Below, one piece after another: positions 2,318-54,250 of a stretch of 64,000 nt of DNA. The notes beneath the pieces were generated by a model. That model worked only from the letters and a program-made list of their open reading frames with translations. It ran no database searches and had not been told where the DNA came from. The stretch is from NCBI RefSeq assembly GCF_058153355.1, contig NZ_CM177019.1; one strand, given 5' to 3'. The stretch's first letter is position 1. Each line of letters opens with the position of its first letter. The position numbers and the translations under genes were made by a program.

Positions 2318-2416
2318 CTAAAAGAGAGAAAAAAGTAATGCCACAGGCAGGCTCATTGGCCAGGTTATTCCGACCAGGAATGCACTAAGTAAACGAATAT
2401 GTGTTTTCTCATGTGA
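2318..2416 (-). pseudogene. ghoT: ghoT 3' fragment (codons 26-57 plus stop), separated from its 5' part by an IS66-family insertion
   Basis: Minus-strand translation continues F-I-S-H-E-K-T-H ... V-A-L-L-F-S-L-F-stop in frame with the 5' fragment at 4894-4968 once the IS and one target-duplication copy are removed. Confidence 0.85.
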
Positions 2417-2423
2417 GATAAAC
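2416..2423. repeat. Target site duplication AGATAAAC (left copy) of the IS66-family element
   Basis: Identical 8-mer directly flanks both IS ends (2416-2423 and 4893-4900). Confidence 0.85.
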
Positions 2424-2498
2424 GTAAGCGTCTTATCAGGACCGTCTGGCAAATTCCCGATGCTTTGGACAAAGTATCCACCACTAAATTAATAGTGG

Positions 2499-2927
2499 GT
2501 GATAAAAATGTCAGATATACAAAAAAATGCCTCTCCGGGAAGGCCTAAAGGGTGCCTGAATTATCCTCCTGAATTCAAACAACGACTCATAGAAGCATCA
2601 TTCCAGCCAGGTGTTTCAATTTCCAGACTGGCCCTGGACAATGGTATTAATGCCAATCTGTTGTTCAAATGGCGTCAGAAATGGCGGCAGGGGAAGATAA
2701 AATTGCCATCATCAGAATCAGGCAGAGAATCTCAGTTAATTCCTGTCACTATTGATGCCCAACTCCCAACTGCTCCGGCTAATGAGCCACTGACCGCAAG
2801 ACCGTCAGTAACACCGGAAATACACAGCATCTCCTGTGAGATTACGTTCAGAAACGGCACCCTTCGGTTGAACGGGGCAGTGAATGAAAATCTGCTGTCC
2901 TTGCTTATACAGGAGCTGAGACGGTGA
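2499..2927 (+). CDS. IS66-family accessory protein TnpA (orf1, 142 aa)
   Basis: First ORF of the element, small helix-turn-helix-like protein; stop overlaps the next ORF start (ATGA). Confidence 0.85.
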   Translation: MIKMSDIQKNASPGRPKGCLNYPPEFKQRLIEASFQPGVSISRLALDNGINANLLFKWRQKWRQGKIKLPSSESGRESQLIPVTIDAQLPTAPANEPLTARPSVTPEIHSISCEITFRNGTLRLNGAVNENLLSLLIQELRR

Positions 2928-3271
2928 TATCTCTCCCTGCAGGTTCGCGTATCTGGCTGGTTGCAGGTATCACCGATATGCGAAATGGCTTTAACGGCCT
3001 GGCCTCAAAAGTTCAGAACGTCCTGAAGGATGACCCGTTCTCCGGGCATCTGTTCATCTTCCGCGGACGCCGGGGTGACCAGATAAAAGTGTTGTGGGCT
3101 GACAGTGACGGACTGTGCCTCTTCACCAGACGCCTGGAGCGGGGCCGCTTCGTCTGGCCGGTCACCCGTGACGGCAAGGTGCACCTTACTCCGGCCCAGT
3201 TATCCATGCTTCTTGAGGGCATCGACTGGAAACACCCGAAACGAACGGAACGCGCTGGCATCCGCATATAA
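2924..3271 (+). CDS. IS66-family TnpB (orf2, 115 aa)
   Basis: Second ORF, translationally coupled to orf1, size and position typical of IS66 orf2. Confidence 0.85.
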   Translation: MISLPAGSRIWLVAGITDMRNGFNGLASKVQNVLKDDPFSGHLFIFRGRRGDQIKVLWADSDGLCLFTRRLERGRFVWPVTRDGKVHLTPAQLSMLLEGIDWKHPKRTERAGIRI

Positions 3272-3290
3272 CCCGTTGTAAAGTGAGGAT

Positions 3291-4862
3291 ATGGACACCT
3301 CACTTGCTCATGAGAATGCCCGCCTGCGGGCACTGTTGCAGACGCAACAGGACACCATCCGCCAGATGGCGAAATACAACCGCCTGCTCTCACAGCGGGT
3401 GGCGGCTTATGCTTCCGAAATCAACCGGCTGAAGGCGCTGGTTGCAAAACTGCAGCGCATGCAGTTCGGTAAAAGCTCAGAAAAACTTCGTGCAAAAACC
3501 GAACGGCAGATACAGGAAGCACAGGAGCGAATCAGCGCTCTTCAGGAAGAAATGGCGGAAACGCTGGGTGAGCAATATGACCCGGTACTGCCATCTCCCC
3601 TGCGCCAGTCTTCAGCCCGTAAACCGTTACCTGCCTCACTTCCCCGTGAAACCCGGGTCATCCGTCCGGAAGAGGAATGCTGCCCGGCCTGTGGTGGCGA
3701 ACTCAGTTCTCTGGGATGTGATGTGTCAGAGCAACTGGAGCTTATCAGCAGCGCCTTTAAGGTTATCGAAACACAACGTCCGAAACTGGCCTGTTGCCGG
3801 TGCGACCATATCGTGCAGGCTCCGGTGCCTTCAAAACCCATTGCACGCAGTTATGCCGGAGCGGGGCTTCTGGCCCATGTTGTCGCTGGAAAATATGCAG
3901 ACCATCTGCCGTTATACCGCCAGTCAGAAATATACCGTCGTCAGGGCGTGGAGCTGAGCCGTGCCACACTGGGGCGCTGGACAGGTGCTGTTGCTGAACT
4001 GCTGGAACCGCTGTATGACATCCTGCGCCAGTATGTGCTGATGCCCGGTAAAGTCCATGCCGATGATATCCCCGTTCCGGTCCAGGAGCCGGGCAGCGGT
4101 AAAACAAGGACTGCCCGGCTGTGGGTCTACGTTCGTGATGACCGTAACGCCGGTTCGGAAATGCCTCCGGCGGTCTGGTTCGCGTACAGCCCGGACCGGA
4201 AAGGTATCCATCCACAGAATCATCTGGCCGGTTACAGCGGAGTGCTTCAGGCCGATGCTTACGGTGGTTACCGGGCGTTGTACGAATCCGGCAGAATAAC
4301 GGAAGCCGCATGTATGGCTCATGCCCGGAGAAAAATCCACGATGTGCATGCAAGAGTGCCCACCGACATCACCACGGAAGCCCTGCAGCGTATCGGTGAA
4401 CTGTATGCCATCGAGGCAGAGGTCCGGGGCTGTTCAGCAGAACAGCGTCTGGCGGCAAGAAAAGCCAGAGCCGCGCCACTGATGCAGTCACTGTATGACT
4501 GGATACAGCAACAGATGAAAACACTGTCGCGTCACTCGGACACGGCAAAAGCGTTCGCATACCTGCTGAAACAGTGGGATGCACTGAACGTGTACTGCAG
4601 TAATGGCTGGGTGGAAATCGACAACAACATCGCAGAGAACGCCTTACGGGGAGTGGCCGTAGGCCGGAAAAACTGGCTCTTCGCGGGTTCTGACAGCGGT
4701 GGTGAACATGCTGCGGTGTTGTACTCGCTGATCGGCACATGCCGTCTGAACAATGTGGAGCCAGAAAAGTGGCTGCGTTACGTCATTGAACATATCCAGG
4801 ACTGGCCGGCAAACCGGGTACGCGATCTGTTGCCCTGGAAAGTTGATCTGAGCTCTCAGTAA
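3291..4862 (+). CDS. IS66-family transposase TnpC (orf3, 523 aa)
   Basis: Long ORF with N-terminal coiled-coil/leucine-zipper-like segment, CxxC...CxxC zinc-finger-like motif and DDE-type core, typical of IS66 transposases. Confidence 0.88.
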
Positions 4863-4892
4863 ATATCAATACGGTTCTGGCGAGCCGCTTAC

Positions 4893-4968
4893 AGATAAAC
4901 CAGATAATGACAAAGTATATGTTCACACCAATCACATAAAAAATTAATATTTTAGAGAATAGTGCCAT
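4893..4968 (-). pseudogene. ghoT: ghoT 5' fragment (codons 1-25, MALFSKILIFYVIGVNIYFVIIWFI) reading into the IS right end to give a 61-codon chimeric ORF (4783-4968)
   Basis: N-terminus matches the GhoT small membrane toxin; sequence after codon 25 is IS-derived; native continuation is found at 2318-2416. Confidence 0.85.
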
Positions 4969-4995: not shown

Positions 4996-5292
4996 CTACT
5001 TGTAAAACTGACGGAAATAGTCATCAACTGTCATAATGTTGAGGTCAAAATCAATATCCGGTAAGTCTAAGCATTTGAGCCTGATTAAATCTTCGATTTC
5101 ACTTGCGGCTAACGATGTCGTTATTGCGAAGGAATTTTCATTCAATTGTCGTGGTATCCCATATTCATCAGCCACGATAGAGGAGAAATTCATATCATAC
5201 ATCAATGATCTTAACCTTAAGAACACTGAGGAATAAGATGATGGATAATCAAAAGAAACAACATAAGTATTGAACTTGTTTTTACCTTCCAT
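4996..5292 (-). CDS. ghoS: Type V antitoxin GhoS (YjdK), 98 aa
   Basis: Translation MEGKNKFNTYVVSFDYPSSYSSVFLRLRSLMYDMNF...; located immediately upstream of ghoT on the same strand. Confidence 0.85.
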   Translation of the reverse strand: MEGKNKFNTYVVSFDYPSSYSSVFLRLRSLMYDMNFSSIVADEYGIPRQLNENSFAITTSLAASEIEDLIRLKCLDLPDIDFDLNIMTVDDYFRQFYK

Positions 5293-12318: not shown

Positions 12319-12969
12319 ATGACCCGCACACTCAAGCCGTTAATTCTTAACACCGGCGCACTGGCGCTAACGTTAATCCTGATTTATACCGGCATTTCGG
12401 CCAATGACAAACTCACCTGGCTGATGGAAGTGACACCGGTGATTATTGTCGTGCCGCTACTGCTTGCCACCGCCAGACGTTACCCGTTAACGCCGCTGCT
12501 CTATACGCTCATTTTCTTTCATGCCATCATCCTGATGGTCGGCGGGCAATACACCTACGCGAAAGTCCCCGTTGGTTTTGAGGTGCAGGAATGGCTGGGG
12601 TTGAGCCGTAATCCGTATGACAAGCTGGGGCATTTTTTCCAGGGGCTGGTGCCTGCACTGGTGGCGCGAGAAATTCTCGTTCGCGGGATGTACGTGCACG
12701 GACGTAAAATGGTGGCGTTTCTGGTCTGCTGCGTGGCGCTGGCGATAAGCGCGATGTATGAATTAATCGAGTGGTGGGCAGCGCTGGCAATGGGTCAGGG
12801 AGCGGATGATTTTCTCGGCACCCAGGGCGACCAGTGGGACACACAATCCGATATGTTCTACGCGCTACTTGGTGCATTAACTACGGTGATATTCCTTGCT
12901 CGCTTTCATTGCCGCCAGCTACGGCGCTATGGCTTAATCACCAGAGCGCCGGAAGCGATTACCTCTTAA
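12319..12969 (+). CDS. yjdF: Inner membrane protein YjdF
   Basis: Hydrophobic ORF in conserved position after fumB; start codon not verified. Confidence 0.8.
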   Translation: MTRTLKPLILNTGALALTLILIYTGISANDKLTWLMEVTPVIIVVPLLLATARRYPLTPLLYTLIFFHAIILMVGGQYTYAKVPVGFEVQEWLGLSRNPYDKLGHFFQGLVPALVAREILVRGMYVHGRKMVAFLVCCVALAISAMYELIEWWAALAMGQGADDFLGTQGDQWDTQSDMFYALLGALTTVIFLARFHCRQLRRYGLITRAPEAITS

Positions 12970-14321
12970 CGGTGTAACCAGCCTGGCAGCCAGTCGCCGT
13001 GGGCGGCAATCAGGTCGTCAACAAGAGCATATATTTCGTCAATGCCCAGCACGGCGGCAGTATGCGGGTCCATCATCGCGGCGTGGTAAACACGGTCGCG
13101 ATTTTCTGTGAGAATGGCTTCCGTCAGCAGTGTCTGTACGTTGATATTGGTTTGCATCAGGGCGGCCAGATGCGAAGGTAGCGTACCGACTTTGGTCGGC
13201 TGAATGCCATTAGCATCAACCAGACAGGCCACTTCCACACAACATCCTTGTGGCAGGTTATCAATCAAACCATCGTTACGGACGTTGCCATAAATCACAC
13301 TCGGCTCGCCAGTCCAGATAGCGTTCATGATTGTGCTGGCATATTCCCGTGACGGTTTAATATCAATCCGGGAGGCGTTCTTATACTCCTCCAGCTCTTT
13401 ATGCCAGTTCGCCAGCTGCTCGACGCAGCGTTTCGGGTACTCATCCAGCGGTACTTTATAACGCTCAATCAAATCCTCACGACCTGGCTTAATAAACCAC
13501 GGTGTGTACTCAGCAAAATGTTCTGACGATTCCGTGACGAAGTAGCCCAGCTTTTTGAACATTTCGTAACGCACAATATTCTGGCAGCGAGTATTACCAT
13601 GAATATTTGGCTTCGGTGCCTGCCCTGCTTCATAAGCCGCCAGCAGTTCCGGGTAGAGATTCACGTAACTGCCGTCGGCGGTTTTGCGCTCCAGTTCCAG
13701 GTAAAACGCCATATGGTTGATACCCGCACAACGGTAACGCAGCGTAGCCGGGTCGATATTGAGGTCACGCGCCAGCTCTTCCGCCGTTCCCTGCACCGAA
13801 TGACACAGCCCTACCTGTTTGATATGCGGATAACGGGCATACATCGCCCAGGTATTCATCGCCATTGGGTTAACATAGTTGAGCATGGTGGCATCGGGGC
13901 AGACTTCCGTCATGTCCTCGCAAATTTGCCACAGGTGAGGAATGGTACGTAGCGCGCGCATAATACCGCCCGGCCCCAGCGTATCGGCAATGGTTTGTTC
14001 CAGACCGTGGCGCTTACAGACCTCGAAATCAGTCACCGTGCAAGGTTCATAACCGCCAATCTGAAATGCCACCACGACAAAATCGGCATCCTGTAAGGCT
14101 TCTTTCTGTTGGGTGTGGCAGGTGATTTTGCCGCTGGCCCCTGCTGAATCCATCAGCTTGCGCACCACAATATGCGACTCTTCCAGGCGGGTGGGATCAA
14201 TGTCCATCAGGGCAATATGCGCCGTTTTCAGCGCCTCGCGATGGAACACATCACCAAGAATATTTTTAACGAAAATCGTCGAACCAGCGCCGATAAATGT
14301 AATTTTGGGTGCAGACATCAT
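12966..14321 (-). CDS. melA: Alpha-galactosidase MelA (451 aa, NAD/Mn-dependent GH4 family)
   Basis: Recognised MelA sequence MMSAPKITFIGAGSTIFVKNILGDVF...; divergent from melR; stop codon overlaps the yjdF stop. Confidence 0.93.
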   Translation of the reverse strand: MMSAPKITFIGAGSTIFVKNILGDVFHREALKTAHIALMDIDPTRLEESHIVVRKLMDSAGASGKITCHTQQKEALQDADFVVVAFQIGGYEPCTVTDFEVCKRHGLEQTIADTLGPGGIMRALRTIPHLWQICEDMTEVCPDATMLNYVNPMAMNTWAMYARYPHIKQVGLCHSVQGTAEELARDLNIDPATLRYRCAGINHMAFYLELERKTADGSYVNLYPELLAAYEAGQAPKPNIHGNTRCQNIVRYEMFKKLGYFVTESSEHFAEYTPWFIKPGREDLIERYKVPLDEYPKRCVEQLANWHKELEEYKNASRIDIKPSREYASTIMNAIWTGEPSVIYGNVRNDGLIDNLPQGCCVEVACLVDANGIQPTKVGTLPSHLAALMQTNINVQTLLTEAILTENRDRVYHAAMMDPHTAAVLGIDEIYALVDDLIAAHGDWLPGWLHR

Positions 14322-29867: not shown

Positions 29868-31170
<1,303 letters not shown>

Positions 31171-31200
31171 CATGCCTGCAATCTGGGAAACCGGGGTAGA

Positions 31201-31289
<89 letters not shown>

Positions 31290-39101: not shown

Positions 39102-39104
39102 GCC

Positions 39105-39252
39105 GGTGCCGGATGCGGCGTAAACGCCTTATCCGGCTTTTCAGGCCGCAACGCCTGATGGCGCTTCGCTTATCAGGCCTACAAAACCATCGTAATACGT
39201 TGATATTGATTCATTTGTAGGCCGGATAAGGCGCAGCCGCCATCCGGCAAAA
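39105..39252. repeat. REP/BIME cluster between phnK and phnL
   Basis: Several REP units (gccggatgcggcgtaaacgccttatccggc; gcctgatggcgcttcgcttatcaggcctac; tgtaggccggataaggcgcagccgccatccggca); contains an ATCAGGCCTAC 11-mer at about 39172-39182. Confidence 0.85.
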
Positions 39253-39268
39253 ACACGAAGAGGCCAAA

Positions 39269-53985: not shown

Positions 53986-54250
53986 GTAGGCCTGATAAGA
54001 CGCGGTAAGCGTCGCATCAGATATTAATGTCGGATGCGGCGTAAACGCCTTATCCGACCTACAAAATCACCCTAAATCAAGCTATTGCGCAGTCTGGCGT
54101 AGGCCTGATAAGACGCGGCAAGCGTCGCATCAGGCATTGATGTCGGATGCGGCGTAAACGCCTTATCCGACCTACAAAATCACGCTAAATCAGGCTATTG
54201 CGCAGTCTGGCGTAGGCCTGATAAGACGCGGCAAGCGTCGCATCAGGCAT
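53986..54250. repeat. Tandem BIME array: about 2.3 copies of a roughly 114-bp unit built from inverted REP pairs
   Basis: Unit gtaggcctgataagacgcggcaagcgtcgcatcag...gtcggatgcggcgtaaacgccttatccgacctacaaaatcac... recurs at about 53986, 54100 and 54213. Confidence 0.9.

Follow-up and report, generated by a model that had tools for sequence, protein, structure and literature searches.

A recent IS66-family insertion splits ghoT, probably inactivating the type V toxin gene beside an intact ghoS

Type V toxin-antitoxin modules are known from the GhoT/GhoS pair of K-12, where GhoS cleaves ghoT mRNA and GhoT is toxic at the membrane (PMC4010927, PMC4344625). In the window analysed here (the whole 64,000-nucleotide stretch of contig NZ_CM177019.1, assembly GCF_058153355.1) ghoT lies in two pieces on either side of a mobile element and ghoS is complete. 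The locus thus raises the question of what has become of the module: whether the toxin was lost, converted into something else or removed to advantage, and whether the surviving antitoxin signifies anything. We consider it very likely that the recent insertion of an intact IS66-family element produced a loss-of-function ghoT pseudogene beside an intact ghoS, and that the event was a neutral or nearly neutral accident. The features on which this reading is based are collected in Table 1, and all coordinates of the initial annotation agree with them.

Table 1. Features of the interrupted ghoS-ghoT locus and of the inserted element, in window positions
Feature	Position	Strand	Detail
ghoT 3' fragment	2318..2416	-	Codons 26-57 plus stop (32 codons); second transmembrane helix including F38; SHEKTHIRLLSAFLVGITWPMSLPVALLFSLF, then stop
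Target-site duplication, left copy	2416..2423		8 bp, AGATAAAC; ghoT nt 69-76
IS66-family insertion sequence, complete	2424..4892	+	2,469 bp; ends set by empty-site alignment
Left terminal inverted repeat (IRL)	2424..2447	+	GTAAGCGTCTTATCAGGACCGTCT
tnpA, IS66 accessory protein	2508..2927	+	139 aa; NCBIfam NF047595 IS66-like TnpA
tnpB, IS66 accessory protein	2924..3271	+	115 aa; NCBIfam NF033819 IS66_TnpB
tnpC, IS66-family DDE transposase, intact	3291..4862	+	523 aa; NCBIfam NF033517 transpos_IS66
Chimeric ORF	4783..4968	-	61 aa; GhoT residues 1-25 plus 36 IS-derived residues
Right terminal inverted repeat (IRR)	4869..4892	-	Minus-strand reading GTAAGCGGCTCGCCAGAACCGTAT
Target-site duplication, right copy	4893..4900		8 bp, AGATAAAC
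ghoT 5' fragment	4894..4968	-	Codons 1-25; first transmembrane helix; MALFSKILIFYVIGVNIYFVIIWFI
ghoS, type V antitoxin endoribonuclease, intact	4996..5292	-	98 aa; 100% identical to K-12 GhoS

Several lines of evidence establish how the locus was built. The initial annotation had proposed that ghoT is split between codons 25 and 26 and that removal of the element together with one copy of an 8-bp duplication restores the gene, and both proposals are borne out. Excision of the IS and one AGATAAAC copy yields an uninterrupted 57-codon ghoT and aligns without gaps to two empty sites, that of K-12 MG1655 and that of the closer E. coli 2020CK-00188; both have a single AGATAAAC at the insertion position. 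Gene order, spacing and sequences of the excised locus match K-12, and with Pfam domains recorded on the equivalent genes of another locus, the ghoS-ghoT operon of a type V module, GhoS (PF11080) upstream of GhoT (PF10753), is recovered. The two AGATAAAC copies are identical and form a perfect 8-bp duplication, the length reported for IS66 (PMC6778807); the probability of an 8-bp match by chance is about 1.5e-5. Because the empty sites hold one copy, and because two other copies of the element have the same ends and 8-bp duplications of their own, the pair is a true target-site duplication, as had been claimed.

The restored GhoT has 57 residues, 56 of them identical to K-12 GhoT, the sole change being S18Y. 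Decay after inactivation was considered as the origin of this substitution and rejected: the same 57-aa S18Y protein, a rare variant, has an intact gene on 5 further contigs (ENA, Logan assemblies), and S18Y is thus no evidence of decay.

Since assemblies notoriously go wrong at IS elements, a copy from elsewhere might have been wrongly collapsed into the lysU-ghoS interval. A misjoin, however, would not give a perfect 8-bp duplication together with exact restoration of the frame on excision, and both junctions fall exactly at the element termini as defined by the two other copies. We regard an assembly artefact as highly improbable.

Assignment of the inserted element to the IS66 family, made initially from the letters of the sequence, is upheld by its proteins and its ends. 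Each of the three proteins exceeds the curated cutoff of its NCBIfam model: TnpA at 88.9 bits against NF047595 (cutoff 74), TnpB at 127.8 bits against NF033819 (cutoff 50) and TnpC at 479 bits against NF033517 (cutoff 180). The identical proteins in E. coli GCA_047897835.1 carry Pfam HTH_Tnp_1 (TnpA), PF05717 (TnpB) and four IS66 domains, LZ_Tnp_IS66, zf-IS66, DDE_Tnp_IS66 and DDE_Tnp_IS66_C (TnpC). The genes are read in the orientation opposite to ghoST. The GTG start of tnpB (2924) overlaps the TGA stop of tnpA (2925-2927) as GTGA, the kind of stop-start coupling that Han et al. in 2001 are said to have described as typical of the family. Consecutive tnpA, tnpB and tnpC with a DDE transposase are the arrangement of three ORFs described for classical IS66 elements, and inverted repeats beginning GTAAGCG are reported for other members (both PMC12888890). 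Here IRL and IRR match at 18 of the 24 outermost positions and begin GTAAGCG at both ends, in keeping with the terminal repeats of about 20-30 bp starting 5'-GTAA(GCG) that mark the family.

The element appears to be mobile, occurring at two further sites with different 8-bp duplications. GCA_047897835.1 holds a copy 99.8% identical over the full 2,469 bp, flanked by CACCGGAC and situated beside a serine-protease autotransporter gene; IncF plasmids of Escherichia albertii (e.g. NZ_CP070285.2) hold one 95.9% identical over the full 2,469 bp, flanked by GAATAAGG and beside a Tn3-family transposase. Both have the same length and the same three genes as the copy in ghoT, and each confirms the element ends independently. 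An 8-bp target duplication is thus found at all three copies (AGATAAAC, CACCGGAC and GAATAAGG), and with all ORFs intact the IS appears to be active. Its left end has no exact match in the GTDB species representatives. Self-comparison found no second copy of the IS and no other long repeat in the window. A single further IS, an IS110-family element, was found there. Shigella was considered as the origin of the DNA, since IS66-type elements and pseudogenes abound in that group, but was rejected on these grounds and because the flanks share 98-99.7% identity with ordinary E. coli.

The closest named relatives share the family architecture of the element but differ from it in part. ISCro1-family copies (a PGAP label; E. 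coli and Citrobacter) are about 97% identical to IS positions 502-2469, that is, tnpB-tnpC-IRR, whereas the left 500 bp, comprising IRL and tnpA, belong to another lineage and do not align to those copies. TnpA has 139 aa here, whereas strain A34 has an ISCro1-family copy whose TnpA is 216 aa long, and ISCro1 is 2,824 bp long (PMC8764528) as against 2,469 bp. Judged against PGAP-labelled copies and the published length, the element falls short of ISCro1 identity (at least 95% over the whole element, at the same length). Its short tnpA/IRL module is joined to a tnpB-tnpC-IRR part that resembles ISCro1. Few complete E. coli genomes carry the element, and it may deserve a check against ISfinder and a name.

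How old is the insertion? A megablast search with the left junction found it in 0 of 5,426 complete E. coli genomes, and the exact junction was found in 0 GTDB species representatives and 0 JGI metagenome contigs. Given its absence from all genomes and contigs searched, a perfect duplication and an intact IS, the insertion is apparently recent and private to this strain.

Interruptions of the locus as a class are infrequent too: among the complete genomes that carry the locus it is uninterrupted in 5,271 of 5,283 and interrupted in at most 12 (0.23%). With a rough IS load per genome, about 0.2% of genomes are expected to be hit by chance in a 300-bp target. One of the interrupted genomes was looked at, E. 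coli EC21Z-101 (NZ_CP101240.1), and it carries an independent ghoT::IS2 insertion, also with ghoS intact. The element there is IS2 (IS3 family) with a 5-bp ATGAC duplication, compared with an IS66-family element and 8 bp here; its duplication covers ghoT nt 58-62 against nt 69-76, 7 bp apart; and the strain background differs, with flanks about 97.5-98% identical. PGAP annotates the EC21Z-101 gene as two partial ghoT pseudogene fragments. The present case is an ordinary pseudogenisation, and events of the same kind are routinely annotated by PGAP.

That two independent insertions struck ghoT within 7 bp of each other, both sparing ghoS, might point to a hotspot for insertion or to GhoT being selected against. 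Loss of ghoT might have relieved the cell of a self-harming toxin, with ghoS kept for other targets or against incoming ghoT copies; about 20 further mRNAs, concerned with purine/pyrimidine transport and biosynthesis, are reported as targets of GhoS cleavage (PMC4010927). However, the frequency of interrupted loci lies near the roughly estimated random-insertion rate for 300 bp, and because ghoT is 3' in the operon any insertion into it spares ghoS automatically. Furthermore, a perfect duplication and an intact IS give the event no visible age, so that time has not put any retention of ghoS to the proof. The argument for neutrality is itself one from frequency, and its chance expectation uses a rough IS load. 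On balance we think it unlikely that loss of ghoT was selected; the insertion would instead have been neutral or nearly so.

The consequences for the toxin follow from where the element landed. The IS66-family element transposed into chromosomal ghoT, duplicating 8 bp and splitting the 57-codon gene after codon 25, and left untouched the promoter of the ghoS-ghoT operon, ghoS itself and the ribosome-binding site and start codon of ghoT. Both the spacer between ghoS and ghoT and the original ribosome-binding site remain with the 5' fragment, and translation from the ghoT start would give a 61-aa peptide made up of the first helix and 36 non-hydrophobic IS-derived residues. The second helix (residues ~34-54, including F38) is cut off from any start codon, and the 3' fragment that encodes it is now separated from promoter and start codon. 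Counts of sigma-70-like promoters that could drive the 3' fragment, or of terminators that could halt read-through from ghoS, were not clearly above shuffled expectation, and the same scan found no promoter-like site on the minus strand. The locus no longer encodes a GhoT of the full 57 aa that has both of its transmembrane helices. OrtT, 63% identical to GhoT, has predicted transmembrane domains at residues 6-26 and 34-54, 'like GhoT'; the substitution F38R in the second of these abolishes GhoT toxicity, and a contact between Phe38 and Ile21 is thought to stabilise the protein (PMC4344625). With the second helix and its F38 removed, GhoT toxicity has most likely been lost. Of the two outcomes first suggested, a toxin inactivated or altered, inactivation is the better supported, in view of the published F38R and second-helix results, and alteration is left as a minor rival.

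That rival turns on the 61-codon chimeric ORF, which is present as initially described. Its 36-residue tail is an antisense reading of the right end of the IS and the 3' end of tnpC. Fused to GhoT(1-25), it might form a new small membrane peptide, attenuated, altered or dominant-negative, whose mRNA would be an MqsR substrate, unlike that of native ghoT. Translation is plausible because the insertion spared the native ribosome-binding site, the start codon and the first transmembrane helix, and a GhoT fragment of one helix bearing the basic juxtamembrane stretch CKRLAR could still enter the membrane and be active to some degree, a point that counts against complete loss of function. The IS-derived tail also adds two GCU sites; the reconstructed ghoT has none, in agreement with what is published for ghoT mRNA (PMC4344625). 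On the other hand, the tail was never selected as coding sequence, it is not hydrophobic, with hydropathy falling after about residue 35, and one substitution in helix 2 already suffices to abolish toxicity (PMC4344625). The allele is private, and a protein search found no record of the exact 61-aa product. Pfam Toxin_GhoT_OrtT matches the chimera at residues 4-28 only, and since the gene is split as well, we conclude that the locus is a disrupted type V module that is probably not functional. A rewired peptide is, in our judgment, improbable. Functional novelty of one sort or the other, be it a 61-aa MqsR-sensitive membrane peptide or a ghoT that is a preferred or selected IS target with GhoS kept for those roughly 20 mRNAs, likewise has little probability.

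The status of the antitoxin is simpler. As initially reported, ghoS is intact, and genes matching it in other E. coli genomes are annotated ghoS. Since the promoter and ghoS are untouched, GhoS is presumably still made, and because its sequence is identical to that of K-12 its activity would be retained, though the insertion would leave it without its cognate target. The initial annotation spoke of an orphan antitoxin that is retained. As a description this stands; as evidence of selection it does not, because the insertion is recent and there was no time for decay. Retention of ghoS was probably passive. In sum, there is no sign of selection, adaptation, new function or a new system at this locus.

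Beyond correct annotation the case has little significance. The strain should be scored ghoT-negative but ghoS-positive. In its annotation the split ghoT belongs among the pseudogenes, and the label of toxin should be withheld from the 61-codon ORF. As a natural ghoT knockout with ghoS intact, it is a possible background for GhoT-independent roles of GhoS, but the genotype is easily engineered.

Placed beside K-12 GhoT/GhoS (b4559/b4128), the locus likewise lies between lysU and yjdJ, with ghoS preceding ghoT, and it differs in the S18Y substitution and in the 2,469-bp IS after codon 25 of ghoT. That components of this family can occur unpaired is shown by OrtT (YdcX), an orphan GhoT-like toxin that counts as a GhoT-family remnant or variant with a single component (PMC4344625). 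OrtT is the mirror case, a toxin without an antitoxin. In the present locus it is the antitoxin that remains and the toxin that has probably lost its function, and the unpaired state of ghoS was brought about by a fresh insertion rather than by evolution of the arrangement.

The window is a stretch of E. coli chromosome reaching from the end of dtpC across lysU, ghoT, ghoS, yjdJ, yjdI, dcuSR, dcuB, fumB and beyond, and in it ghoT, which lies downstream of ghoS in the ghoS-ghoT operon, is split by an insertion sequence (IS) lying between two copies of an 8-bp direct repeat. Rechecking the window confirmed every coordinate that the initial annotation had assigned to ghoT, the IS and ghoS (see the table). 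In-silico excision of 2424-4900, which removes the IS and one repeat copy, gave a product that was aligned to the empty loci of E. coli 2020CK-00188 (one of the complete genomes nearest to the window over the ghoS-dcuS flank, at 99.7% identity) and K-12 MG1655. There is no gap over the junction in either alignment, and each reference has a single AGATAAAC at that point. As had been proposed, excision yields an uninterrupted ghoT of 57 codons, the 57-aa product of which differs from K-12 GhoT solely by S18Y; ghoS is indeed intact, and its product is identical to K-12 GhoS. Exact look-up of the 523-aa transposase found it in one other place, the E. coli draft assembly GCA_047897835.1, where a 2,469-bp copy of the element (99.8% identical) adjoins a serine-protease autotransporter gene and has its own flanking 8-bp repeat, CACCGGAC. 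The only other full-length relatives seen are on E. albertii IncF plasmids (2,469 bp, 95.9% identical), flanked by GAATAAGG. Because the termini agree at three sites while the 8-bp duplication differs at each, the boundaries of the element are settled and its mobility is shown, and the single copy at empty sites, together with the separate repeats at two other IS copies, bears out the repeats at ghoT as a true target duplication. Misassembly is very improbable, since a perfect duplication and exact restoration of the reading frame are not expected from one.

Coordinates of the interrupted ghoT locus, the inserted element and other features of the window
Feature	Position	Strand	Size	Remarks
ghoS	5292..4996	-	98 aa	
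ghoT start	4968	-	25 codons	frame then enters the foreign segment
ghoT 3' part	2416..2318	-	remaining 32 codons and stop	
IS in ghoT	2424-4892		2,469 bp	starts GTAAGCGTC..., ends ...GCCGCTTAC
Direct repeat	2416-2423 and 4893-4900		8 bp	AGATAAAC; flanks IS on both sides
tnpA	2508-2927	+	139 aa	intact
tnpB	2924-3271	+	115 aa	intact; GTG start overlaps tnpA stop
tnpC	3291-4862	+	523 aa	intact
TTG-initiated ORF	2318-2452	-	44 codons	begins inside IS left inverted repeat; LPDGPDKTLTFI + SHEKTHIRLL...SLF
ghoT codon 18	4915-4917			TCC -> TAC
yjdF	12319-12969	+		
melA	12966-14321	-		
IS110-family element	29949-31226		1,278 bp	
IS110 transposase ORF	30141-31121	+	326 aa	intact

The assignment of the element to the IS66 family held on every feature tested. 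TnpA, TnpB and TnpC each score over the NCBIfam curated cutoff (IS66 TnpA, IS66 TnpB and IS66 family transposase, respectively), and a TnpC identical to this one carries four IS66 Pfam domains (leucine zipper, zinc finger, DDE and C-terminal domain). The ends match at 18 of their first 24 positions and both open with GTAAGCG, a start also known in other IS66 members (PMC12888890), and an 8-bp duplication is a hallmark of the family (PMC6778807). Positions 502-2469 of the element are ~97% identical to many copies labelled 'ISCro1 family' by PGAP. ISCro1 proper was nonetheless rejected as its identity, because those copies differ at the left end and encode a TnpA of 216 aa, and because ISCro1 is reported to be longer, at 2,824 bp (PMC8764528). 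The element is modular, with window positions 2424-2925 (IRL and tnpA) from another lineage and 2925-4892 (tnpB-tnpC-IRR) ISCro1-like. Judged by these alignments, the element is a shorter ISCro1 relative with a different IRL-tnpA module, and apparently an unnamed but typical IS66-family member. Against the GCA_047897835.1 copy the element shows five differences, every one of them synonymous and confined to a 94-bp stretch of tnpB (3046-3139), a pattern suggestive of a short gene-conversion patch contributed by another IS66 relative.

The window holds other structural differences from 2020CK-00188. An unrelated IS110-family element, whose transposase matches 'IS110 family RNA-guided transposase' (NF033542, at 253 bits), is inserted in a REP/naRNA4 repeat of the yjdM-yjdN interval, at a site that is empty in that genome; we take it to resemble IS621, a REP-targeting bridge-RNA recombinase. 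The transposase gene of the IS110-family element is preceded by ~190 non-coding bp, which matched no Rfam family. Rfam naRNA4 (REP/BIME-derived nucleoid-associated RNA) has three matches, within 53986-54250 and 29871-29947; two are tandem copies, offset by 113 bp, in the yjcO-gltP interval, where the window appears to exceed 2020CK-00188 by about one repeat unit. Between phnK and phnL, 39102-39260 (~157 bp) does not align to the ~167 bp of 2020CK-00188 while both flanks do, and is probably a different REP-type spacer. The melibiose permease gene melB is absent: where 2020CK-00188 has 1,665 bp between yjdF and melA, the window has ~20 bp in their place, at 12945-12966. Of 5,413 complete E. coli genomes, 1,264 share this yjdF-melA junction, so the absence is not a private deletion but a structural polymorphism that is common.

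The insertion lies downstream of the operon promoter, of ghoS, of the ribosome-binding site between the two genes and of the start codon of ghoT, all of which are essentially unaltered, and GhoS production should continue. Translation from the ghoT start would give MALFSKILIFYVIGVNIYFVIIWFI followed by 36 residues that are an antisense reading of the IS right end. This fusion matches the Pfam GhoT/OrtT model at residues 4-28 only, and its IS-derived tail is not hydrophobic. GhoT, like its homologue OrtT, is described as a two-transmembrane-domain inner-membrane protein; residues 6-26 and 34-54 are the predicted segments of OrtT and not GhoT coordinates (PMC4344625). Toxicity of GhoT is abolished by F38R, and the protein is believed to be stabilised by contact between Phe38 and Ile21 (PMC4344625). 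Since the whole second helix is gone, the insertion should abolish GhoT toxicity, which favours the first of the two outcomes, inactivated or altered, that had been offered for the toxin. The 3' fragment has no in-frame ATG and is covered only by a mechanical TTG-initiated ORF, and a scan of its strand (-) found no promoter-like sites. The rebuilt ghoT contains no MqsR GCU sites, as reported for the native mRNA (PMC4344625), whereas the IS-derived tail brings two into the fusion ORF.

The initial annotation also described the antitoxin as retained. The gene is intact, but its retention says nothing about selection, because any insertion into the downstream ghoT spares ghoS and because the insertion is by every sign recent: the duplication is perfect, the IS is intact, a near-identical copy exists elsewhere and no other genome searched has the junction. 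GhoS is reported to cleave ~20 other mRNAs (PMC4010927), so that a GhoT-independent role is conceivable. It is very improbable that the fusion peptide is functional, or that ghoT was inactivated through selection or as a hotspot while GhoS was kept for such targets. The left IS-ghoT junction is present in none of 5,426 complete RefSeq E. coli genomes, the junction was not found in GTDB species representatives or JGI metagenome contigs, and exact look-up of the 61-aa fusion product returned no record. Of the 5,426 genomes, 5,283 carry the rebuilt 300-bp ghoT region, and in 5,271 of these it is uninterrupted, leaving at most 12 (0.23%) with a split or partial region. A 5-Mb genome carries, roughly, some tens of IS copies, and a 300-bp target would be hit by chance in ~0.2% of genomes; no selection is therefore needed to explain the frequency observed.

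The S18Y substitution, relative to K-12 and the closest complete genomes, could be read as decay after inactivation. This was rejected, because the same intact 57-aa protein is encoded on five other contigs (ENA and Logan assemblies). The four of these that were retrieved have flanks only ~98% identical to the window, in different backgrounds, and S18Y is thus a rare standing allele. The insertion allele is new, and the event is an ordinary case of an IS turning a chromosomal toxin gene into a pseudogene. Among the at most 12 genomes with a split or partial region, the one examined, E. coli EC21Z-101 (NZ_CP101240.1, 3661-4992 of the retrieved locus), has an IS2 copy within ghoT and a 5-bp duplication, ATGAC, of ghoT nt 58-62; there too ghoS is undamaged, and the two parts of ghoT are annotated by PGAP as fragments of a pseudogene. 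Its duplication lies 7 bp from the one described here (nt 69-76), and the two insertions are independent events. Disruption of ghoT by an IS is thus a known kind of event, routine in annotation, of which the present allele appears to be an example private to its source strain.
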